A DNA stretch of 63,141 nt, the filler included, from Stramenopiles sp. TOSAG23-6 (taxonomy: Eukaryota): the NCBI GenBank assembly GCA_900128565.1. It is 10 parts of 10 records of this genome, joined end to end, with 100 filler letters (N's around TTAATTAATTAA, not from the genome) between each part and the next. Parts side by side here need not be neighbours in the genome. Positions count along the whole stretch, not along the records: positions 15,289 to 22,825 come from LT636554.1; 9 more parts are not named here. One strand, 5' to 3'. Shown here one piece after another: positions 7,545-62,060 of this stretch; position 1 is the stretch's first letter, and each line of letters opens with the position of its first letter. Position numbers and translations under genes: made by a program. Under the pieces are notes generated by a model. The model did not search any database. It was not told the DNA's origin and saw only the letters and a program-made list of their open reading frames with translations.

Positions 7545-7643
7545 NNNNNNNNNNNNNNNNNNNNNNNNNNNNNNNNNNNNNNNNNNNNTTAATTAATTAA
7601 NNNNNNNNNNNNNNNNNNNNNNNNNNNNNNNNNNNNNNNNNNN
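7545..7643. other. Artificial contig linker (N44-TTAATTAATTAA-N44); others at about 15189-15288, 22826-22924, 30441-30540, 38037-38135, 45625-45724, 53204-53303, 60780-60879, 61961-62060
   Basis: The same six-frame-stop linker separates every contig. Confidence 0.97.
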
Positions 7644-7771
7644 NTTTTTTTTTTTTTTTTTTTTTTTTGTTAGGTATAAAAATTTACTACAAAATTAAAT
7701 CAAATTTTCGTATTACTACGTACTACGTAGTATACGATTTCTAAAGTTGAATTTATTTATATTCTAAATAG

Positions 7772-12296: not shown

Positions 12297-14030
12297 ATGA
12301 CTCGGATGCAAGTACTTTATTCGTGGTTTCCTAGATCTGTTCGACATGTGCGACCTCTTGCAACACGCACGTGTATACGTACTACACCTCTTTCAACAAA
12401 ACATGTGTATAGATACACCCATAGCTATAATTCACCAAACCTTGACTTTGACGACTTTTTTAATGCCGATGAAAGTCAAGAGCAACCCAGCGAAACTGCT
12501 GCAGCTGATATAGATTCTATTGACTATACAAATATTAGAAAATACTTGCGTCGTTTGTTGATGCGGGTGCATCCAGATAAATTAAGAGGATATCCAAGTT
12601 CTGTTTTAAAAATGAATGAGCAGTCGCTTGCCGTACTGAACGACTTTGTTGACATTGCAGAGCAAATGTGTTGCAGTAAACAGACTGTTGTAAACGGTGT
12701 AGGGGCCCGAATACCAGCATCTTATAAGCTAAAGTTTTTCTATATTTGTCCAAACCAGGATAAAAGTGTGTTGGATGATAAAGAGAAGCCTTCGAAACTT
12801 CTTCAATGTAGAATACACCTTGTCGTTCCGTCGGATCTTCAAGCAGCTGGTGTAAGTCTTTCTTCTGAACAGATTTCCAACTGGCGTGAATTTGTTCATG
12901 AAGCAATTTGTAATCTACTTCATGCAGCTGAAATTGAATTAGATGAAGAACTTTCTCGTGTTGCTCCAAGTATTGTGTCATCAATTAACGCAGCTCGTCG
13001 GTCAAAATCTCGAAGTATTCAACGAAGAAAAGAAGCCGAAGAAGAAAAACAATTTGAAGAGTATGCTGACCGTAGACTTGCACAAGATAGAAATAACCGT
13101 GCTGTATTTGCATCAGATTTATCTCCTAGTGGACAAGATGAAGAACGTAAAAAGATCGCACTCGATATAATTTCAAGGACTTTTGGATCAGGGAAAAATA
13201 CTGCTAATTTATCTCAAAATATTATTGAACAATTAGGACAGCCGCTTACTACAGAAGAAGCTTCTCTTGGAAGAATGTATGTTTTATTTTTTTTTGTATG
13301 AATTTTTTTTTATAGTACATTTTGTACCTAACAAATTTAAGTTTTTTTTTTTGAAATATTTTTCCAAAATATTTTTTTTTTATAGTAAATTTTGTACCTA
13401 ACAAATTTTAATTTTTTTTTTTGAAATATTTTTCCAAAATACATGCGTTTGTTTAGTATTCTCAGTGATGAATACTCATTTAATCGCCTTGGACTAGAAA
13501 CGCCTATATGGAATGATGTACGAATCATTCTCGCTAGAAAATTTGGATTATTAAAAAAAAAAACGTGTATCGTTGTTCCATTCGACGTTTCAGAAGATGA
13601 ATTTTTTGATGTTTGTGATGTATATCTGAATAAATTACGACGAATTTCTGCAAAGCGTAGAAAAATAGAGTTGCAAAATAATCTCTGTGCTGTCGATGAT
13701 GATAATAGTGAGAAGTGTGATGATAATTCCTCGGTTGGATTTTCTACCACTGAACAAAAAGAAAAACAAGAAAAACAAGAAAAACAAGAAAAACAAGAAA
13801 AACTAGAGTTTAGAATTGATGCGACTGATGGTATGGTATATACACTACAAGATTTTATTACATATTATGGTACTATAGAAGGAAGAGAGCAGTGGAAAAA
13901 ATCTAAAATTGTCAATGATTGTATAGATAATACTATAGATAAGGAAGAATATACAAAATTTTCAAATGAAATGCATTCGACGCAAAAATTACTTGACGCT
14001 TTGAAAGAGAATAAAAATCACTTGTTGTAA
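12297..14030 (+). CDS. DUF4460/TCAIM-like putative mitochondrial protein; exons 12297-13276 and 13445-14030
   Basis: R-rich presequence, LRRLLMRVHPD..NEQSLAVLN motif; frame joined by intron 13277-13444. Confidence 0.65.
13277..13444 (+). mobile_element. Family intron (GT..AT) with internal duplication of the core
   Basis: AGA AT|GTATGT...TACCTAAC (x2)...CAAAATACAT|G CGT; an in-frame AG further downstream also exists, so this copy is not diagnostic. Confidence 0.65.
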
Positions 14031-14281
14031 GACTTCTTTTAGTATTCAGAAATAATTCAATTTTTTGTATTGTTATTTTATAATTTAATAAAAATATGTA
14101 CAGCGTTAAATTATAAAACTAAGTCTTACCTATAGTTCTTGCATACTTATTAATCCTAACCCTAACCCTAATCATACCCTTCAACTTGAACATTCCAACG
14201 TGGCGAATTAGCAATGTTTTACATATTTTTGAAAATATGTGACCCTCCTGTGAAGCTACATAATGGGGTAGCTCCGACGTA

Positions 14282-15188: not shown

Positions 15189-15288
15189 NNNNNNNNNNNN
15201 NNNNNNNNNNNNNNNNNNNNNNNNNNNNNNNNTTAATTAATTAANNNNNNNNNNNNNNNNNNNNNNNNNNNNNNNNNNNNNNNNNNNN

Positions 15289-19010: not shown

Positions 19011-19045
19011 ACATTTTTTTCAAAATAATCAAATGATCTCTGTTT

Positions 19046-19107
19046 GTCTCTCTATCTGTCTCTCTATCTGTCTCTCTATCTGTCTCTCTATCTGTCTCTC
19101 TATCTCT
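19046..19107 (+). repeat. (GTCTCTCTATCT)n minisatellite
   Basis: About five tandem 12-mers. Confidence 0.9.
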
Positions 19108-19148: not shown

Positions 19149-19220
19149 ACCGCGGTGGTGTAGTGGTAATCATATTCGCTTCCCAAGCGAATGCCCCGGG
19201 TTCGATTCCCGGTCGTGGTA
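19149..19220 (+). tRNA. tRNA-Gly(CCC)
   Basis: Cloverleaf: acceptor ACCGCGG/TCGTGGT, D-loop AGTGGT, anticodon arm TTCGC-TTCCCAA-GCGAA, T-arm CCGGG-TTCGATT-CCCGG. Confidence 0.9.
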
Positions 19221-19332: not shown

Positions 19333-20604
19333 TTAATTTAAAAGTCTTTTTTGTGAAATATCTGGTGAAACAGCTTCTTCTGAGAAGATACTCAAACTTG
19401 CAGCTCTCATACCAAATTCAACACTCTCATACAATTTATTACCATTTGCAAGCATATAAACAGTTGCACCAGCTAAAGTATCACCTGCACCCGTACAATT
19501 AACTATATCTTTCGCAATAGTTTGTGGAGATATTTTATGTACTTTCAAAACTTCATTCGTGACAGAATCAAGTATTGTGAAAAAATATTTAAAAAAAAAT
19601 CGTTAGGTACGAAATTTCGTATGAAAAACAAAAAAAGTTAAAAATTAAGGTGAAAAAAATCAAGGGTTAAAACGTACAATAGTTGGTTTTGCTGATACTA
19701 TAAAAACTCCTTTTGATCCTCTTGTCACTATAATATGTTTGAATTTTGCTTTACCTTCTCCTACTTTCATATTTTTTATGACTGTAGCTGCTAAATTAAT
19801 AATGTCGTCTTCAGTGACATTTTTGTAATCTGTTTTTGCATCAATATCGCGATTATGAATTGCATCCACAATGGAACATATATTATGAAAAAGTATTTTA
19901 GAAATTTGATTTGTTTGTTAGATACTATATGTACTACAAAACAAAATTGAAATGAATGATAAAAGCATACACATGTATTTTGGAAAAATATTTCAAAAAA
20001 AAAACTGAAATTTGTTAGGTACAAAATTTCGTACGAAAAAAATATTTAGACAAAAAATTGAAAAAAAAAACATACAATTCTTCAACATTAGGAGATAAGT
20101 ATGTAAGTTGTCGACAAGACAATAACCCATTAGACACTGCAAATATTGTGAAAAATATTTTTTTTTTTTTGGATAATAAAAAAAATCATTAGATGCAAAA
20201 TGTACTACGAAACAAAAAACAAAAACATAACAAAACATTTTGAAAACGCACACGGTGTGCCTTTGGTACAGATGTAGATTCAAACCAAATCAAAGGTTTA
20301 TTTCCCATATTTCCCATATTTCGAATATCCGATTTTGTTTTATCAGATTTTGTTTTATCAGATTCGTCTTCAACACAAATTGTGAATAATTCTTGCATCG
20401 TATTTCTTGATAAATTTCCATCTAAAACGACAATGTATATTGAAAAATATTTCAAAATATTTTTTAATTTGTTATGAGTCAAATTTTCATAGTAAAAACA
20501 AAAAAAAATAAAATTGAAAATAATGGAAAACGTATATACTAGATGCTTTAATGGAAGATTCAAACGATCTGATGTCTGAACTGCTCAACGTTTCTAGGAC
20601 CTGC
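19333..20604 (-). CDS. PfkB-family kinase (pseudouridine-kinase-like), C-terminal part; introns 20433-20535, 20141-20251, 19973-20075, 19878-19970, 19570-19677
   Basis: Spliced product: IVVLDGNL..WFESTSVPKAHR..YLSPNVEEL..IIVTRGSKGV..IVNCTGAGDTLAG. Confidence 0.8.
19570..19677 (-). mobile_element. Family intron (GT..TT)
   Basis: ACT ATT|GTACGT...TACCTAAC...CACAATACTT|GAT TCT; TT duplicated at both ends. Confidence 0.7.
19878..20075 (-). mobile_element. Two tandem family introns (19973-20075 and 19878-19970) separated by a 2-nt exon at 19971-19972
   Basis: GAA TT|GTATGT..ACAT|GT|GTATGC..ATAT|GT TCC gives PNVEELCS; each intron has its own CTAAC. Confidence 0.7.
20433..20535 (-). mobile_element. 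Family intron (AT..AT)
   Basis: AGT AT|ATACGT...ATACAT|T GTC GTT TTA GAT GGA AAT gives SIVVLDGNL. Confidence 0.7.
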
Positions 20605-20704
20605 ATGTATTTTGGAAAAATATTTCAAAAAAAAAAAACTGAAATTTGTTAGGTACAAAATTTTTATAAAAAAAAAATTCATACAAAAAAAAAATAAAAC
20701 ATAC

Positions 20705-22596
20705 ATGGATACTAGTTTTTCTCTTTTAATTGATTTTGGCCAAACAAGAGATACAATTTGAACAACAATTTTTGCCATGACACGTGGCATTACAGTATTC
20801 GTTTTTCGTGTAAAGGTAGGAATTCCAATAGACGCTAACCCTAGAGATTGTTCAGGTATTGGTTCGTTACCAGGTACAACATTATCCATTGCAGTGTGTA
20901 TTGTGAAAAAATATTTAAAAAAAAATCTAAAAAAATCNTNAGNTACAAANTTNGTACGAAAAAAAAAATTTACTCAAAAAAAAAAAAATATTTGAAATGT
21001 ATCATTGAAACAAACAGTACAAGCTGAAATAAATAATGATAATGCGGAAGAAATATCATCCCAATAAAATGAAAGAATACTTCGGATCGTTTTCATTTTT
21101 TCATGTTTTTCATGTTTTTCATGTTTTTCGTTTGTTTTGTGTTTTTCGTGTGTTTCCTTTTTTTCGTTCTCGACACAAACCTGTTGAATAGGTAGAGAAA
21201 GTTGTGTAGTGCCTCCAGTGGTATATACAACTGACTTTATAACATTATACAAACAGTCAAGTGCAAATTTAGCTTGAATTGTAAATGGTTCCCGGGTCCC
21301 TCGAAGTAAAGGCAGGATGTATTTTAAAAAAATATTTCAAAATTTACTAAAAAAATTTTTTTTGTTAGATACAAAAATTTCAAAAAAAAAAAAAAACTTT
21401 TTTGTTTTTTTGTTTTTTTGTTTTCTATGAAAATTTTGTATAAAAAAATAAAACATATATAATATTTTGCATCGCAAAATCAAATTTATATTTTGCAATG
21501 ACAACAACAAATGCAATACAAGGTGGTACATCTTCATTTTTACTCATATCTTTCGAATTTTTTGATAAAAAAGAATTATATGTATATGAATACGGATTAT
21601 CGACATTAGGGTTAGGGTTTGTCGAATACATTTCAACATCAAAAACGTCAAAAAAATTACAAACATCAATCCAATAAGTAGGGTTAGGGTTTTTAAAGTT
21701 TTTAAGGTTTTTAAGATTTTGGTTCACATCTATGATATTGTTCAAAAGTATACTTGTTGGAATATTTTTGAAATTATCAAAATGAATATTATCTAAAAAA
21801 TTAGACAATAGATTAAATGTAGAAGGAAGATATTGTGAAAAAATATTTTTTTTGTTTTTTGTTAGGTACAAAATTTCGTACGAAAAAACAAAAATGAAAA
21901 AAAAATATTTTTTTTTGATTTTTTTTTGTTAGGTACAAAATTTCGTACGAAAACCAAAAAAAAAAAATTAGGCAAAAAATATAATGAAAACGTACACAAT
22001 CACTGTTTTACTCAAATGTCTGCTTTTATCTTTTATTTCCTTGGATGTGGCTCGAGAAAGTAATACAGAATTTTGTACTATCGGACAATATTTCAAATTG
22101 TTTTTTTTAAATTAGGCTTACGTACGAAATTTCGTATGAAAAAAGTTTGAAATTTTGAAATTTTTTTTTTTTTCAAAAAAAAAAATGATGTATAATTTCA
22201 AAACAATTTCATTTTGAAAAAAAAAAAATTGTAAGAAAATTTTCATAGAAAACATAATTTGAAAACAATTTTAACTTTTGAAATGTTAGATGATTCTAAA
22301 AATACATATATATATATATTGAATATATATATTGAATATATATATTGAATATATATATTGAAATGTATGCAATCATGATAATAGAAACAAAACGTACAAC
22401 TATTGGTTGCAAAATTTTTAACACAGTCTGCCCAGGATTAGGGTTAGGGTTAGTAATGCATTTTGAAAATCGAATCAACATTTCTGAAATTAAAGTTGTT
22501 ATACAAGTTAGTGTTACTTCTCGATACTTCATATGTTTTTTATATACATTAAGAAGTGGTTTTATTATTGTTGATAGAGACGTTGTCCAGCCATCC
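20705..22596 (-). CDS. Fragmented multi-exon hypothetical gene with family introns (20605-20704, 21317-21458 AT..AT, 21828-21995 GT..CT, others); may be mis-joined to the PfkB gene
   Basis: Open exon frames join across 21317-21458 and 21828-21995; no recognisable domain. Confidence 0.45.
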
Positions 22597-22688: not shown

Positions 22689-22924
22689 TTTAAAAATTTT
22701 TAAAAAAAAAAAAAAATTTTTTTTTTTTAGGTAAAAAATTTTATAAAAAAAAAAATTAAACAAAAAATTAAAAAAAAAAAAAAAAAAAAAAAAAGTTTTT
22801 TTTTGTTAGGTACAATATTTACTATNNNNNNNNNNNNNNNNNNNNNNNNNNNNNNNNNNNNNNNNNNNNTTAATTAATTAANNNNNNNNNNNNNNNNNNN
22901 NNNNNNNNNNNNNNNNNNNNNNNN

Positions 22925-25900
22925 NCGGGTAAAACTGGCGAATATTATCTTCAGCACAGTTGGGGTCTTTATGCTGGTGTTGCTCCTCAAGCGGATTGCT
23001 TTACTATTAAATCGAAAACACATGGCCTTTGGTGGCCTGCAATTTCTACATCAAATTTTTCAAGTGAAGTATTCATCCGTTTTGGAATTAAAGGCAGTCG
23101 TGTTTCAATAGCATTAGCACCAGACGAAACAATAGAAAACGGAGGATACACAACATCACATTGCCCCAGGGGTTATCAGGTACACCAAACAATGCCTTTA
23201 TGTTGCCAAGGAAATTGTATCACAAAATGTGATCAGAATAATATCAAGTGTGCAAAGGAGGTATGCGCCTTAGATGTATTGTATGTGTGGGATAATCCTG
23301 TAAAAGAATGCGATACACTCGAAATAGTGAAACAAACTGAAAGGATTCAACTAAGTGATGGTCCATGGTCCAACGAAGGGCTTCTATCAGCACTACTTGT
23401 AACAGAAAATAATAGTAGTAATGCTCCCAAATGGTACCCGGTATGTTATAACGTTAGTGAAATAGTAGTAAAAAATACGGCAACTGTTGCTTGTCGCAAC
23501 CTTGGTTTTGATGGGCTGCAAGAGTATATAATGAAAAATAAAAATGAAGAGAAAAATAATGGAAAACTTATAAATATTAATTGCCAAGGAAATGAAAACA
23601 GTCTTCAAGAATGTACCATACATGGAAAAAGTGAATGTCAAACAAACCGACAGTTATGGATTAAGTGTCAATCGCTATATAGAAACACACTTGACGAAAT
23701 GTATAAATTCTCTATTGATTCACACACTTACAAAATGTCGAAATATAATAAAGGTATGGTGCAATTGTTAGATGAAAAAGTAAATGCATCAGAAACATTG
23801 GTTAATTCGAGCATCTTCTCGTGGTTTTGGATCTCTTTGAAAAAGAAAGAAAACCAGTTAAATATAAATTTTGGAAAAGGTTTAGACAAAGGGGAAAATG
23901 TACTATTGAAACACGAAGAAAATTTAACTCAATCAATAGACTTCAGTCGCATTCTTGTGCAAGCTTCAGATGCATCTCAAGCAAACTTTATAATTTGTAA
24001 AGAACCATTACTTTGTGATAAAACTCCAAAAGTTGGCTCGACTCACCCGGAAAATGCAGTATCAATCAATTCAACTGAAATAGCACATGGAAGCAAGGAA
24101 CAGATCTCAATAATTAACGAGTCAATTTGTAATATTTATGGCTCTTGTTATAATCCATGGTATGGGGGTCCTAAATGCTTTAAACCGTCAAAGAAACCAG
24201 AGGTCGATGATCATGGAGAATTTCGTTTTAAATCACCAATTGTAGAAAGTATATTATCTCCAAAACCAGTCGAACAAACAAATGTCACAATGAAATTAAT
24301 ACCAACTTCAAAGGAAAGCGAATATACTTGGACTTTGCAATATGTAGGTAGAGCGTTGACATTTCCCCCCAAAGAAAACTGGTCGCCTACTTTAGACCAA
24401 ATTATGAGTGATGTTGCAAAAGCATCACCTAAGGATAAAGAATATTTTCTTGCTGGACAAGCGAAACTTTATGAATATTCATCATTCCTCCGTAACGTAA
24501 CAACTCTAGAAAAAGATTATGAAAAACTTAGAGACGAAGCGCAGAATGCAACTCGAATATTCGATGGATTATTGTCAAACTCAACATTGGCACATTCAAA
24601 ACCATTGACTTCGGAAGCTGGTGTATCACGATTAAAACAAACTGATGCCAACGATTTATGTGCTACTGGAGCAATAGATTATACTTCATATGGTCCTAAA
24701 TGTGTGAAAGCGTTCATCAATGGAAAGTCATGTATTTCTTTGTCTATAATTAATAGTAATCTTTTATCATGTATAGTTCCAGCTGGAACGGGTAAAGATA
24801 TGAAAGTCAGCGTTTCATCAGATAATCAAAGCAATACGAATGCAAACGTAACACTTGCATATGACAGACCTAAAATAGATTCTATATATCCATCGAATTC
24901 GCCCGTCTTGGGAGGAACAACTTTACATGTATCTGGATCTAATTTTGGAGATCCATCGACCAATATCACTCTGAATTTATACATTAGAGGTAAGCCATGC
25001 ATTTCAACGATCCATATTTCGGATACAGTAGCAAAATGTATTGTACCACCCAATATTGGAAAAGGGGCAATCGTTACTGCTACAGTGAATAAACAAACGT
25101 CAGAAAGCAAGGTCTATCTTACATATAATAATCCAAGAATTGATTCTGTAGAACCACCAATTATGTCTACAAAAGGTGGCGAACTTTTAATTACAGGAAT
25201 AAATTTTGGATTTATGAATCATACAAAATCCAAAAACAATAATTCTCTTGTAGTGGAATTTGTCAGTGACGGAGATAGTTCATTTCGTGGATCTTGTTCG
25301 AACATAAAATGGAAAACGGATGGGGCAATTACATGCACAGCCCCGCCAATACAGTCTTTAAAACGTATTGATGGAAATCTTTCAATAGTTGTCAAGGTGT
25401 GTTACCCGAATAATTCAGACAAATCAAATTGTTTGGGCTCATTGAGATATAAGATTGAATATCAGGGTCCAACAGTCAAAAGTGTTAGCCCTAGTGTTAT
25501 GGATACAATAGGCGGTAAGCCCTTGGAAATACATGGGGAAAATTTTAGTGAAAATTTGGATGCTTTATTTATTGGTACTAACAGATGCTTAAAAAACAAT
25601 ATAGTATATATAAACCCCCAATTAGTGCGATGCACAAAAGTACCACCCGGGGTAGGATCTGATTTAAATGTTCAAGTTCTTATTCGTGGTAGAGCATCAG
25701 TCCAAAATAATTTTTTTAGTTATGCCTCTCCAACTGTAACAAAGGTTATCGTCGACAATAATTCTATTTGGGGNCCTCCNCCCGCCGGTGCATTTTATCG
25801 AGATCATATAGATATCGGAATAAAATATCATATTAAAGTTTACGGTAAAAACTTTGGACACAGTAAGAATTCTCAAAATGTTTTAATAAATGGGGTACCT

Positions 25901-30440: not shown

Positions 30441-30540
30441 NNNNNNNNNNNNNNNNNNNNNNNNNNNNNNNNNNNNNNNNNNNNTTAATTAATTAANNNN
30501 NNNNNNNNNNNNNNNNNNNNNNNNNNNNNNNNNNNNNNNN

Positions 30541-37970: not shown

Positions 37971-38136
37971 GTATATTTTATTTTTTTTTTTTTGTATGAA
38001 TTTTTTTTTCGTACGAAATTTTGTACCTAACGAATTNNNNNNNNNNNNNNNNNNNNNNNNNNNNNNNNNNNNNNNNNNNNTTAATTAATTAANNNNNNNN
38101 NNNNNNNNNNNNNNNNNNNNNNNNNNNNNNNNNNNN

Positions 38137-45078: not shown

Positions 45079-45804
45079 TTGTAATGCTTCTTCTTAATGC
45101 CAAGAAGAGAGAGAGAGAGAGATAGAAGATTGAGATTATAATAGACAGAAGTAGTCAAGTCCATCAAAAAATGACAGAGACCGCTTCGAAATCAAATGCC
45201 ACGTGTCGAACGAACAAAGAAGAAAATTAACTTATTAATAACGGTTATTAACTTATTCACTTATTAAACTTATTATACCAAAACGAACTTTGAACTGTCG
45301 AATTTGCTGCCATTCGCTTTAGGCTACTACCTACAGCTATTATATTATATATACTATATTGTAGGCTATTACTAGCATTAGCTAGCTACTAAGCTCTAGA
45401 TAGAGATATCAAAAGATATACTACTACACATTACATAGAATTGTAGAGCAATAAATGTGTTTGACATGAATCATCCACTTCATTCCAACTTTTCAAGTTC
45501 AACAACTAGTTTTAATACAGGAATGATAATAGTGGGACCAGGAGGGCTTCTAAATCGACGAAGAAAAGCTGCTATTAAAATACAAGCTCTATGCCGAGGG
45601 AATGAAACACGCCAAAGACACATANNNNNNNNNNNNNNNNNNNNNNNNNNNNNNNNNNNNNNNNNNNNTTAATTAATTAANNNNNNNNNNNNNNNNNNNN
45701 NNNNNNNNNNNNNNNNNNNNNNNNAAAAATATTTCAAAAAAAATCGTTAGGTACAAAATTTACTATAAAAAAAAAATTCGAAATTAAAAAAAAAAAAAAC
45801 ATAC

Positions 45805-48416: not shown

Positions 48417-48888
48417 TTCGTATAATGAGACAGCCACTGGATATTATTAAAATGTGTAAGTAATAATAAAGCAACAAATACTAAATAATCGCGAAGAATG
48501 TCTTGTTGAGTTTCTCCCCTTTGTGTTTCCACACTTACTGATATCACGCTTCGAAGTTCGAACGGAGAACCGGTAAAATCAACGCATCATCATTTTTAAG
48601 TACAAAAATTCGTACCAAAGCCAGAATAGAGCTGAACCGCAGGAACATCGATTCAGAGCGACACGAAATAATCACGCTCAAGTAAACTAAAGTCGTCCAG
48701 AAGTCCGAAGTCAAACATCAAACTTTTAATCACACTCTGGTAGCAGTGGTCTTCTCAGGACCTGGTCTGTGGTCTTCTGTTCTGAAAATTCTTCTCTTCT
48801 TCACGATTTTTTTCTGTTGCAAGACTTAGTATCGTTCGCTACTGTATCATTTTAAACTGCCAAATTTAGAATTTTACAGTAGATACTC

Positions 48889-49617
48889 ATGGACGACGCA
48901 ATTTCAATGGATGCACGCGTTGGTGCTTGGGAGGTTGGTGAACGTATAGGACGTGGTGGATTTGGCATGGTTTATAAGGGTATAAATCCAACAACGAAAG
49001 AAGCTTGTGCAATTAAGCGAATTCCACTCACTGGTTTATCAGCAGATTCGCTTGCTTGTGCTGAGAGCGAAATCGACTTACTTAAAAATTTAAGTCACGC
49101 CAATATTGTCGAGTATCGCGGTACAGTACGGACTCCAACTCATTTAAACATTATACTTGAATTTGCCGAAAACGGTTCCCTAGCAGACATTGTCAAACAA
49201 TTTGGTACATTTACGGAAACACTTGCTGTGGTGTATATTACACAAGTCATGAGAGGTTTAGAATATTTACACAGTCAAGGTGTGATCCACAGAGATATAA
49301 AAGGAGCCAACATTTTGACGACAAAAAGTGGTGTGGTCAAACTAGCCGATTTTGGTGTTGCTTCAAGTCTCGGAGACGCTAAATCAAAGGGTTCTTTGAG
49401 AAAAAGTATCGGCCAAGATACTAGTGGTATAGTAAATACCTCGCATAATAATCCAAAGAGTTCGAAGGATATGATATCAAATGACCTTGACGTTGTTGGC
49501 ACTCCTTTTTGGATGGCACCAGAAATTGTTCAGATGTCAGGTTTGACGACTTCATGCGACATCTGGAGTCTCGGTTGTACTTTAATTGAGCTACTTACAG
49601 GAAAGCCCCCCTATTTC
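48889..49617 (+). CDS. Cdc15/Cdc7(SepH)/MAP3K-epsilon-type kinase domain, truncated after GKPPYF
   Basis: GRGGFG, EIDLLKNLSHANIV, EFAENGSL, HRDIKGANILTTKSGVVKLADFG, VVGTPFWMAPE. Confidence 0.88.
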
Positions 49618-50202
49618 ATGCGTAATCATTTAGGTACGTATGAATGCAAACTATGCTTATCCATACATAATAATGAAGGTAACTATTTAGCGCACACTCA
49701 AGGAAAACGTCATCAAGTAAATCTTGCTCGCAGAGCTGCCAAAGAAGCCAGAGATAACCCAGCGCAGCCACAACCTCTAGGAATTTCAAAAGTACGTATT
49801 CGGAAGAATATTGTAAAAATAGGAAGACCTGGTTATAAAGTAATAAAGCAAAGGGACTCTGAAACAAAGCAAAGAAGTTTAGTATTTGAGATTGCTTACC
49901 CAGAAATTGAAGAAGGCGTTCAACCTCGACACCGCTTTATGTCTCCATATGAGCAGAGAATTGAACCCCCTGATAAAAATTTCCAATATTTGTTATTTGC
50001 TGCAAGTCCATATGAAACAATTGCATTCAAAGTGCCAAATATGGAGGTTGACAAGAATAAAGATAAATTTTTAACGAATTGGGATCCTAACACGAAAACT
50101 TTTACTCTCCAACTTTACTTCAAAAACGAGAGAACCCAAGTCAAACAGGCCAGTTCGGGTAGGGTCAAACTTATTGCCAAGGAACGTGATTGTGCATATT
50201 AA
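49609..50202 (+). CDS. SF3A2: Splicing factor SF3a subunit 2, N-terminally truncated and fused in frame to the kinase
   Basis: PYFMRNHLGTYECKLC..HNNEGNYLAHTQGKRHQ.NL; KIGRPGYKV; PRHRFMS.YEQ; PYETIAFK. Confidence 0.92.
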   Translation, partial: PYFMRNHLGTYECKLCLSIHNNEGNYLAHTQGKRHQVNLARRAAKEARDNPAQPQPLGISKVRIRKNIVKIGRPGYKVIKQRDSETKQRSLVFEIAYPEIEEGVQPRHRFMSPYEQRIEPPDKNFQYLLFAASPYETIAFKVPNMEVDKNKDKFLTNWDPNTKTFTLQLYFKNERTQVKQASSGRVKLIAKERDCAY

Positions 50203-53148: not shown

Positions 53149-53352
53149 ATGTATTTTGGAAAAATATTTCAAAAAAAATCGTTAGGTACAAAATTTCGTA
53201 CGANNNNNNNNNNNNNNNNNNNNNNNNNNNNNNNNNNNNNNNNNNNNTTAATTAATTAANNNNNNNNNNNNNNNNNNNNNNNNNNNNNNNNNNNNNNNNN
53301 NNNGAAATTTTGTACCTAACAAATTTCGAATTTAATTTTTTTTACAATACAT

Positions 53353-54730
53353 GTGATGTTTTAGAAGTGAAAACGTATAATAGATTAAGCCCTCTGACTA
53401 TAAGTAATACGTGTATACAACATGATATTGAACATGGTATAGAACCTGGTGATTGTTTGATTGCTTTCAGTCGGAAAGAAATATGTACTTTTTCATGATG
53501 ATGTTTTGATTTTTTTTTTTTTTTTTTTTGGTCATGAAATTTTTTTTTTTAAAATTTTTTTTTTTTTTTTTTGATTAAAAGAACGTATCGATTCGATGGG
53601 TCATAAATGTTGTATTGTATACGGTTCATTACCCAATGAATCAAGAAAAGAACAGGCAAAATTATTTAATACACCTAATAATGGTTATGATATTCTAATA
53701 GCAAGTGATGCTATTGGCATGGGTTTGAACCTTAATATTAAAAGAATTATTTTCACAACTTTACAAAAATTTGATGGCACTCAGACAAGGACACTCTACC
53801 CCCAAGAAGCCCGACAAATTGCTGGTCGTGCTGGTCGTTTTAACTCTGAATATTCTGATGGTTCTGCTATTTGTTTGCAGCGTGAAGATGTAAAAACATT
53901 GAAACATTTAATGCAATCTAAAGTTCCCCAATTAGAAAAAGCTGGGTTATGTTGTAATGATGAACAAGTTGATAATTTTTGGTATTTTCTACAAGAATCT
54001 AGAGACTCAACTCAAGAAGTTCCATTTAGTGAAGCTTTGCGACTTTGTAATGATAATGTTAAAATAGATTCTTCTTTATATTTTATGTGTAATGGACAAG
54101 ATTCAGAAGAAGTAGCACGATTGATCGACGATATTGAAATTCCTGTCGCGGATAGAATATATGTTTTAATCAATTTCAAATTTATTTGTTTTTTCATAGA
54201 AAATTCTGTACCTAACAAAAATTTTAATTTTTTTTTGAAATATTTTCACAAAATATATGATTTTTGCACGAGCTCCAGTAGATGTTGGAAATGAGAACGT
54301 CGTCGCATGTTTTCAAAATTTTGTTTATGAATATTCTACAATTATTTCAAGAAAAACACACGAAATACAAAGTGTATCTCTCAGTGGAAAGTTAAAACTA
54401 CGACAAAATGGTATACCACGAAATCCATATAATGTCGCAAAATTGGAAGATATGAACAAAATCTTGGAAATTTATTCTTGGTTGTCTCTTCGATTTCCTT
54501 CTTATTTTGATGAAGCTATTGAAGCTGAATATAAACAAAATGAAGTGGCTGATTTGATTGCCTCAGGCTTAGATAGAATGAGTGATAATGCTGGTTTTAA
54601 ACATTCTATACGAAATAAAAGACGCCGATTTTCTATTAGCCCTAACCCTAACACTAAGAGACTAAAAAGTCACTCTACAAAAAGAAATAAAAATTTCAAA
54701 AGAAAAAAGAAAAGAGTAAAAAGATGTTGA
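53353..54730 (+). CDS. SUV3: Mitochondrial RNA helicase SUV3 (5' truncated); introns from 53485 and 54159-54258
   Basis: Y.RLSPL, GDC.IAFSRKEI, VYGSLP..R..QA..FN, ASDAIGMGLNLNIKRIIF, QIAGRAGR, Y.WLS.RF. Confidence 0.92.
54159..54258 (+). mobile_element. Family intron (AT..AT)
   Basis: AGA AT|ATATGT...TACCTAAC...CACAAAATATAT|G ATT TTT gives DRMIFARAP, the SUV3 R-x-x-F-x-x-AP spacing; no in-phase GT-AG pair nearby. Confidence 0.8.
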
Positions 54731-60724: not shown

Positions 60725-60945
60725 ATGTATTTTGGAAAAATATTTGAAAAAAAATCTAAAAAAATTTGTTAGGTACAAANNNNNNNNNNNNNNNNNNNNN
60801 NNNNNNNNNNNNNNNNNNNNNNNTTAATTAATTAANNNNNNNNNNNNNNNNNNNNNNNNNNNNNNNNNNNNNNNNNNNNTACTTTTATACATTGTAGGAT
60901 AATATATTTTTTTTTTTTTTTTTTTTTTTTTAGGAAAAAAATTTC

Positions 60946-60993: not shown

Positions 60994-61947
60994 ATCGTCT
61001 TCTGAAGTAAACACGAAATTAGCTAATTTGATATCCCTATGAGCAATATCTTTGGAATGACAATACTGAATTGCTCCTAACATTTTCCGTACCTAGAGAG
61101 AAAACAAAATGTAAAAAAAAAAAAAATCTTAGGTACAACATTTCGTATGAAAAAAAATTGAAAAAAAAAAATTAAATTTTTTTTTCTTAGGTACGAAATT
61201 TCGTATGAAAAAAAAATTGAAAAAAAAAATAAATTTTTTTTTCTTAGGTACAAAATTTCGTATGAAATATTTAAATAAAAAAACGTACGAGACGTCGAGT
61301 CGCTGATTCTGAATATCGTTTACCAGGTTGTGCTTGTAATCTATCATATAACTCTCCCCCAGTACATAACTCCATGACCATATATTGTACAGAAATATTC
61401 TAAAACTTGAAAAAAAAATTATGTTTTGCTTTTTTGCTTTTTTGCTTTTTTGCTTTTTTGCTTAGGTACAAAAATCCGTATGAAAAAAAAATGTTAGGGT
61501 TAGGGTTTGATATATTTTTTTTGTCCATTTGTAAAGCAAACATTGAAATGAGTGAGGAAAAAAGTACATATGAATAATATCACCTTGTCTATATGTTCGA
61601 TGGAGTTTAACAATGTTTGGATGATCAAGTTGTTTTAAAATTTCGATTTCGTTTAAAAGTGTTTTTCGATATTTTGGTAACACTTTTTGTAAGTCAATAA
61701 TTTTCATGGCATAACGAACTCTAGTGCGTCGATGTTCAATGACGACGACGGAACCTGTCGTACTTTCACCCAACTCTCGTGTACCAATATCATACACATC
61801 TTCTACCTTTTCATCTGTACGTATGGGTACGAGATTACTATAGGATGAACACATCCGTAAAGGTGGGTTGTGTCGTGGTTCAGTCAAATAATCATCATCT
61901 ACACCGCTTTTTTTATGACTATGACTTGTACTAGAACATAAACCCAT
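60994..61947 (-). CDS. CDPK/CaMK-type protein kinase, N-terminal part; introns 61380-61567 and 61093-61288
   Basis: MGLCSS acylation-type start, NEIEILKQLDHPNIVKL, MVMELCTGGELYD, HRDIKLANF. Confidence 0.85.
61093..61288 (-). mobile_element. Family intron with a canonical end (GT..AG) and three tandem core copies
   Basis: CGT CTC|GTACGT...(GTACCTAAG)x3...TCTCTAG|GTA CGG AAA ATG. Confidence 0.8.
61380..61567 (-). mobile_element. Family intron (GT..AT)
   Basis: CAT AT|GTACTT...TACCTAAG...ACAATATAT|G GTC ATG GAG gives IHMVMELCTGGE; the two AGs nearest the 3' end are out of frame. Confidence 0.85.
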
Positions 61948-62060
61948 TATTGTATTTTTTNNNNNNNNNNNNNNNNNNNNNNNNNNNNNNNNNNNNNNNN
62001 NNNNTTAATTAATTAANNNNNNNNNNNNNNNNNNNNNNNNNNNNNNNNNNNNNNNNNNNN

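Follow-up and report, generated by a model that had tools for sequence, protein, structure and literature searches.

A candidate two-nucleotide exon between tandem AG-less introns of one repeated family in a pfkB kinase gene of Stramenopiles sp. TOSAG23-6

When two copies of a repeated intron lie end to end within a coding sequence, with only two nucleotides between them, is each copy removed from the transcript on its own, leaving an exon of two nucleotides in the message, or is the whole unit excised in some other way? This question is raised by a locus on the minus strand of a window (the whole stretch of DNA analyzed, 63,141 nucleotides including filler) from the assembly GCA_900128565.1, which belongs to an uncultured marine eukaryote. 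The initial annotation had interpreted the locus as a micro-exon located between two back-to-back non-canonical introns that are spliced sequentially.

Two family copies separated by GT

Direct reading of the minus strand reveals two end-to-end copies of one repeated intron family, at 20075-19973 (intron 1) and 19970-19878 (intron 2), which are separated by GT alone (19972-19971), and the coordinates given in the initial annotation for both introns and the GT were matched exactly by this reading. The pair sits well inside the contig at 15289-22825. The exon before the pair (20076-20140, 65 nt), which belongs to a pfkB kinase gene, ends ..CCT AAT GTT GAA GAA TT, in phase 2, with GAAGAATT as its last letters before GTATGT. 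Intron 1 (103 nt) starts with this GTATGT (20075-20070), has a CTAAC box at 20018-20014, and closes with a T-rich tail of 21 nt (19993-19973, AAATATTTTTCCAAAATACAT) ending in ACAT, the final letters at 19973 being ..CCAAAATACAT. Intron 2 (93 nt) starts with GTATGC (19970-19965), has CTAAC at 19921-19917, and ends in ATAT, at the close of a tail that reads AAATACTTTTTCATAATATAT (19898-19878), with the final letters ..CATAATATAT at 19878. The terminal AG is absent from both members of the pair, and in intron 2 there is no AG whatsoever between the CTAAC box and the following exon. This exon (19678-19877, 200 nt) opens GT TCC ATT GTG GAT, and its first letters, from 19877, are GTTCCATT.

The G of the candidate exon (19971-19972) completes the leucine codon TT|G, and its T opens the cysteine codon T|GT. 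As the T is repeated, the candidate can be written equally well as TG at 19973-19972. At 2 nt, it lies within the limit of three or fewer nucleotides set for a micro-exon, and is flanked on each side by a complete intron. This is the only complete tandem pair of the family found in the window, where one of three regex matches was genuine.

The completeness of the two introns was assessed with a full-length profile built from 13 other aligned introns of the window, from which the pair was excluded. Each member of the pair was matched end to end, as the earlier claim of two complete introns would have it, with intron 1 recovered at 20077-19971 (model positions 4-107, E 9.8e-16, 53.4 bits) and intron 2 at 19972-19876 (model positions 4-107, E 4.2e-8, 28.8 bits). 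The two matches overlap in the GT alone, which is both the 3' flank of intron 1 and the 5' flank of intron 2. Both introns have the preceding T, the RTRYGY start and the CTAAC box, and in both the aligned final position of the tail is occupied by T.

Intron 1 is 87-88% identical to the copies at 38483-38381 and 52494-52408, and intron 2 is 52-66% identical to every other copy, including 63% to intron 1. On this comparison, intron 1 looks like a young, near-consensus copy, and intron 2 like an old, diverged one. The low identity between the two, set against the near-identical copies of intron 1 elsewhere, indicates that the pair did not arise by a recent tandem duplication, and suggests that a young intron 1 was inserted beside the pre-existing intron 2, at a T^G site.

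The protein encoded across the junction bears on the two nucleotides. The alignment set comprised 29 of 114 exhaustive HMMER matches, chosen by length, of which 23 have approximately 275-380 aa and six longer proteins are represented by their C-terminal 330 aa. The spliced model aligns without gaps from P162 to V171 in all 29 rows. Residue N163 is N in 26 of the 29 homologues, E166, in the exon before the pair, is E in 28, and I170, in the exon after the pair, is represented by L, M or I in 28, while the junction residue itself, L167, is A in 15 homologues and L in 11. Given this gap-free spacing in 29 of 29 homologues, exactly two bases must be kept, and the argument from frame and homology makes a strong case, at the level of sequence, for their predicted retention.

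The claims that keeping the GT restores the frame, and that removing the introns as one unit shifts it, were both confirmed by translating the junction models. With the two introns out and the GT kept (model A), the frame is open through the next exon, and the removal of 20075-19878 as one unit of 198 nt (model B) causes a frameshift, with a stop after seven further codons. The models in which only one unit is removed (E and F) both reach stops. Two single-intron models remain in frame. The removal of 20075-19880 (model C) gives the same peptide as model A, with TTA for TTG, and the removal of a 196-nt intron at 20073-19878 (model D) gives an mRNA identical to that of model A, which means that the predicted cDNA alone cannot decide between two introns and one.

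Two other placements of the splice sites were considered and set aside. Used as the acceptor, the AG located 10 nt past the branch box of intron 1 (..TTTCAG), which is absent from many copies of the family, would leave 34 nt behind and break the frame of the next exon. An AT..AC reading, in which both borders slide 2 nt to the left, fits only 14 of 20 introns. In the pair, this reading would convert the junction leucine to methionine, a residue seen in one of the 29 homologues, which counts against the reading without being decisive by itself.

The assembly of the pair was compared with two public DNA data sets, X1, which is possibly the source sample, and X3, an independent seawater metagenome from 2024. 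Record 6 of X1 matches 19604-19997 with no differences, and record 16 of X3 matches 19569-19999 with four differences and 18 gap letters. Each of the two contigs extends from intron 3 across the exon at 19678-19877, the whole of intron 2 and the GT, and stops after another 25-27 nt, within the tail of intron 1; this last part is shorter than the 31 nt adopted as the criterion for bridging. Among the contigs listed, none runs from the exon at 20076-20140 through intron 1 into intron 2, a span found in the window's own assembly only. A false join of a family tail to intron 2, induced by the repeat, would be in keeping with the fragmented assembly and its short contigs, often broken inside the repeat. 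The tail, the GT and intron 2 are, however, found together in X1 and, independently, in X3, and the protein alignment has no room for missing coding sequence, all of which makes an artefact of this type very improbable indeed.

The intron family, its boundaries and the host gene

The copies of the family, of roughly 90-175 nt, are found on both strands and in unrelated genes of the 63-kb window. In the 15 full copies that were aligned, the preceding exon invariably ends in T, and the intron opens with RTRYGY and continues through a T-rich body to a CTAAC box; the consensus of the tail is a T-rich AAATATTTTTYCAMAATAYNT, with T as its final base. A profile built from the terminal 72 nt of ten introns returned 33 matches with E <0.01 among the 49 matches listed for the window. 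All 20 copies have T both immediately before the intron and as its last base (with one 3' end corrected), the first base after the intron is G in 13 of 20, and no copy (0/20) ends in AG. Since T both precedes and ends every intron, a leftward shift of each border by one base leaves the product unchanged.

The start is usually GTAYGY and sometimes ATAYGT, with A as the first base in three of 20 copies. These three introns, which begin with ATATGT or ATACGT, are located at 54159-54258 (plus strand), 21458-21317 (minus) and 20535-20433 (minus), and the frame is restored at the family-aligned ends in all three. In the intron at 54159-54258, the third-last base is T rather than C.

The boundary rule was assessed in other introns, with 5' starts set from the alignment of the family and 3' ends as given by the profile, by asking whether the longest frames on either side were joined in phase. 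The rule had been put forward in the initial annotation as open to an independent test at the pair, and it holds on independent introns, given that, with the pair set aside, 16 of 18 introns were in frame (P ~2e-6 if one third is expected), one was ambiguous, and one was off by 1 nt. Copies with 3' ends at 20896 (near Ns) and 22073, in which the 5' start could not be placed, and copies cut by contig ends lay outside this test. In the ambiguous intron, at 20251-20141 (minus strand), the frame supported by homology is in phase under the family ends, and a canonical GT..AG intron, with GT 2 nt upstream and AG 4 nt downstream, fits equally, with two residues fewer. The exception, at 38818-38645 (minus strand) in an LRR gene, with its 3' end corrected, is 1 nt off the rule (upstream phase 1, downstream lead 1), and may be a true exception or reflect an error in the sequence. 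This intron also holds a run of 18 A's.

A protein domain supplies a further instance of the rule. Before the intron at 35493-35400, Pfam HD_3 matches profile positions 2-89 at residues 42-133 of a 135-residue piece, and after it, positions 95-152 at residues 3-60. As the split codon fills the gap in the profile, the domain is exactly continuous across this intron, which also favors the rule. A previous version of the frame test, with a threshold of 20 codons, placed 13 of 16 introns in frame at offset 0, versus 6-7 of 16 at other offsets, and provided no discrimination. The family boundary rule, then, restores reading frames elsewhere and leaves two homology-required bases at this locus.

Two introns of 168 nt, at 13277-13444 (plus strand) and 21995-21828 (minus strand), have a duplicated 3' half. 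Each contains two CTAAC boxes and two tails with one donor, the inner donor being absent, and the frame is restored by the end of the downstream tail. Because it is the end of the downstream module that restores the frame, the inner tail can be skipped. This observation bears on the possibility that the pair is a single composite intron, removed in one step with a shifted end (20073-19878 or 20075-19880) and its inner signals ignored, a reading to which the shared peptide of models A, C and D and the one family intron already 1 nt off the rule also lend themselves. Either version, however, breaks the rule by 2 nt, where 16-17 of the 18 other introns keep it, and a complete, well-scoring inner donor (GTATGC) would go unused together with an inner tail. 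A composite intron is considered unlikely on these grounds.

The abundance of the family extends beyond the window. In the public DNA runs, 7584 of 99615 X1 contigs and 6743 of 6.56 million X3 contigs were found on a 5.6-kb stretch, where their depth heaps up over the intron bins, and these counts, which fall mostly on introns, indicate a very numerous, introner-like family. A 22-mer of the family tail had no matches in genome contigs and none in viral contigs. Direct repeats (1-4 nt) are seen at the borders of the introns, the termini form an inverted repeat of 5 nt, (T)GTAT/ATAC(A), and neither a transposase nor a target duplication of fixed length was found for the family. Lone Ns are dispersed within one family intron at 20938-20953 (ttcgtacNaaNtttgtaNctNaN), which suggests that they represent the consensus of unresolved repeat copies. 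A conserved hairpin before the branch box was considered and rejected, as the palindrome GTACGAAATTTTGTAC is confined to young copies and lost in older ones.

Six introns defined by the rule are found in the host gene on the minus strand, at 20704-20605, 20535-20433, 20251-20141, 20075-19973, 19970-19878 and 19677-19570, and their removal yields an open frame of 312 aa that ends at a stop codon. The frame is open further upstream too. The first three of these introns, the second of which starts with ATACGT, occupy the upstream part of the gene (20141-20704), and intron 3 (19570-19677), downstream of the pair, is of the same family (GTACGT ... ATACTT). The last exon (19333-19569) contains the kinase motif NCTGAGD and the stop codon, and matches PF00294 (PfkB, E 6e-11). 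Its best solved relatives are a PfkB-like kinase (PDB 7c1x, E 1.3e-4) and the pseudouridine kinases 7vtg and 7vkp, and the PfkB motifs PN..E and N.TGAGD are both present in the gene. The host may thus be described as a pfkB kinase gene that appears nearest to the pseudouridine kinases, the branch being assigned by the names of the best PDB matches, with E values of 1e-4 to 5e-3.

When the exon after the pair was used to search metagenome contigs for an orthologous locus, 177 pattern matches yielded a single locus, a gene that proved unrelated (35% identical over 57 residues, with 41% GC and no family intron). Among spliced-mRNA-derived proteins, a word-index search with the last exon returned 227 candidates, none of which was significant, and the same type of search with the exon after the pair returned zero candidates.

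An RNA library, X7 (a seawater metatranscriptome, 7% of sampled words), provided 1272 contigs on the stretch, mostly of intron-family sequence, which may represent unspliced RNA, stable excised introns or DNA carry-over. The gene exons were barely covered by the X7 contigs, the joints at 20075, 19973, 19970 and 19878 were not seen, and no conclusion is drawn from this. One contig (record 32, 20670-20815) is unspliced across the donor at 20704, with DNA carry-over as a possible source. This unspliced contig, and the fact that spliced RNA was not seen where the gene exons are barely covered, would be compatible with a gene copy that is not productively expressed, whether disrupted by the young insertion or carrying elements that are removed at the DNA level or never. 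Such a copy is nevertheless distinctly improbable, given that the 312-aa frame is open across the six introns only under the rule, that the kinase motifs are intact, and that both DNA sets, including the bulk metagenome, carry the units.

Comparison with known systems and the proposed removal of the pair

Ultra-short exons, introners and non-canonical introns are each already known. A single-nucleotide exon is reported in Arabidopsis (PMC4674806), and another is reported to be required to assemble the Fusarium gene CYP621A (PMC12940212). Like these exons as reported, the candidate exon is too short for exon definition, needed for the frame, and located between complete introns. It differs in that both of its introns are AG-less and belong to one repeated family, and that it is known from DNA alone.

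Introners are transposon-like repeated introns, described in Micromonas, Aureococcus and other organisms (PMC12130899, PMC4540971). The family in the window resembles them, as portrayed there, in its very many near-identical short introns, its presence in unrelated genes, the direct repeats at its borders, and the coexistence of young and old copies. The curation of introners in PMC12130899 accepts only AG or AC as 3' ends, whereas NT closes the introns of the present family, which also carry a conserved tail internally. The introner elements of Amoebophrya, as presented in PMC7789003, have inverted repeats of 8-20 nt that form hairpins, and terminal dinucleotides that are not conserved. The likeness lies in a marine protist with repeated introns that lack GT-AG and have direct repeats at their borders (3-5 nt in Amoebophrya), according to the same paper (PMC7789003). 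The present family, by contrast, shows conservation of its 5' GTAYG and its branch box, and has no significant structure.

Introns without conserved borders are found in euglenids, hemistasiids and uncultured marine diplonemids, and those of the uncultured diplonemids were predicted from single-cell assemblies without transcript data, according to PMC12621601, PMC6221363 and PMC10161547. Like the nonconventional introns of diplonemids, as these papers describe them, the introns of the window are AG-less and predicted from the genome only, and come from a single-cell assembly of a marine protist. Unlike the euglenid and diplonemid introns, which in these accounts rely on the pairing of their ends and have unconserved borders, those of the window have conserved borders. 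The nearest named relatives of the Psf2 protein are from plants, Prymnesium and Triparma, and none of its 56 matches is euglenozoan, in a word-based search with a list biased by the make-up of the database; a diplonemid origin of the window is not supported by this sequence comparison.

The removal of the introns by a non-spliceosomal route, through a euglenid-like pairing of their ends, would also leave the 2-nt exon. The absence of a terminal AG is consistent with this, as are the direct repeats and the 5-nt inverted repeat at the borders, and the intron ends are paired in four of five minimum-energy folds. The folds of these five introns are, however, no more stable than those of shuffled sequences in any of the five cases (z -0.27, -0.63, -0.63, -0.73 and +1.22), and the GTAYGY and CTAAC are conserved in the manner of spliceosomal signals, which the euglenid nonconventional introns do not have, according to PMC12621601. 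Assignment to the euglenid type was rejected, given the conserved borders and the lack of extra stability, and a non-spliceosomal route is judged to be improbable.

Other known arrangements of adjoining or atypical introns also differ from the pair. Recursive splicing, at zero-length exons, and the splicing of stwintrons are both two-step processes, in which the donor is regenerated or kept at the first junction. The proposed removal of the pair resembles the former, from which it departs by keeping 2 nt, and a stwintron or twintron was rejected, as the units abut, each with an intact donor, branch box and tail, and neither interrupts a signal of the other. The U12-type introns have A or G as their first base, a conserved branch box similar to CCTAAC, and in some cases a terminal dinucleotide that is not AG, together with an RTATCCTT donor, a branch box approximately 10-26 nt from the end, and minor snRNAs. 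The family shares with them the A or G as first base, a strongly conserved CCTAAC-like box, and the non-AG terminus. Membership of this type was rejected, since the donor here is RTAYGT and the branch A is located 33-42 nt from the end.

With regard to the U2-type introns, the family has the extended GT donor (with A at the start in 3/20) and the branch box, and AG as the last two bases in none of 20 copies. The conserved donor and CTAAC box, and the presence in the window of a gene for SF3a subunit 2 (PF16835, E 4.5e-38), which shows that components of the U2 snRNP are encoded, point to a U2-type spliceosome. The intron end holds a fixed position relative to the conserved tail that precedes it, which suggests this tail as the signal for the 3' end. 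No mechanism is known for spliceosomal ligation without a terminal AG in such sequences, which counts against the spliceosomal removal of the pair. Searches of open-access text turned up neither a family in which a yeast-like donor and branch box are combined with a conserved tail lacking AG, nor a 2-nt exon flanked by two introns of this type.

Taken together, the separate, sequential removal of the two introns is the best-supported reading of the sequence, with a probability of roughly 0.6, and the mature message probably keeps the 2-nt exon. With the introns taken out, the coding sequence has two T^G steps located 2 nt apart, each occupied by one copy of the family, and the candidate exon corresponds exactly to the two flanking consensus bases. 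Intron 1 was probably the later arrival, inserted right beside the 5' splice site of the older intron 2. Each unit would then be excised as an intron in its own right, recognized across the intron rather than across the exon. As a 2-nt exon presumably cannot hold both sets of factors at once, recognition would be intron-based and the two events sequential. Whichever unit goes first, the donor of intron 2 is preceded by TGT and the end of intron 1 is followed by GTGT, and since the base context of the splice sites is the same in either case, either order of removal is plausible.

A broader proposition is put forward more tentatively, its chances falling a little short of even. In this, the spliceosome would take a 3' splice site that has no AG, guided by the tail of approximately 20 nt, in a mobile family that targets T^G and has thousands of copies, and the two members of the pair would be excised independently. 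If this were true, such introns would be recognized wholly from within, and independent excision would be possible with an exon of only 2 nt between them. Splicing as predicted would also mean that recognition needs almost no exon sequence beyond a preceding T and, usually, a following G, and that a motif within the intron, in place of AG, can determine the choice of the 3' splice site. The pair would also show how a spreading intron family can settle beside an existing intron with the gene spared. In terms of annotation, the standard gene finders based on GT-AG will fail on every gene of this genome, and the 2-nt exon offers a compact test case for the splice models built for it.

Surroundings of the locus

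A tRNA-Gly (CCC) is located at 19149-19220, on the plus strand, opposite the kinase gene and approximately 110 nt past its stop codon, and beside it, at about 19040-19105, GATAGAGAGACA-like units are repeated in a short tandem array. Elsewhere in the window, an open frame of 439 aa at 48883-50202 (plus strand) encodes a protein kinase domain that is truncated at profile position 207 of 263, with the zinc finger and SF3A2 domain of SF3a subunit 2 immediately after it. Fusion of two genes, read-through, or a contig of chimeric origin might account for this arrangement.

Contigs of approximately 7.5 kb, in descending order of size, make up the window, where they are joined by linkers of the form N44-TTAATTAATTAA-N44. 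The linkers are found at 7545-7644, 15189-15288, 22826-22925, 30441-30540, 38037-38136, 45625-45724, 53204-53303, 60780-60879 and 61961-62060, and several of the contig ends fall within the intron repeat.

Eleven telomere-like strings (CCCTAACCCTA) are distributed through the 63 kb, one of them with three units. Eight are on the minus strand, at 61505, 59019, 52960, 22449, 21689, 21617, 11506 and 8477, and three are on the plus strand, at 14160, 33597 and 54640. Two such strings are found just upstream, in the open frame of the pfkB gene. The NPNP frame is the sole stop-free frame inside the string in all 11 cases, and at least seven of the strings are located in frames, in unrelated genes, that are open across the whole of the stretch shown. 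The codons are identical in every copy, which points to an origin of these strings at the level of the DNA.
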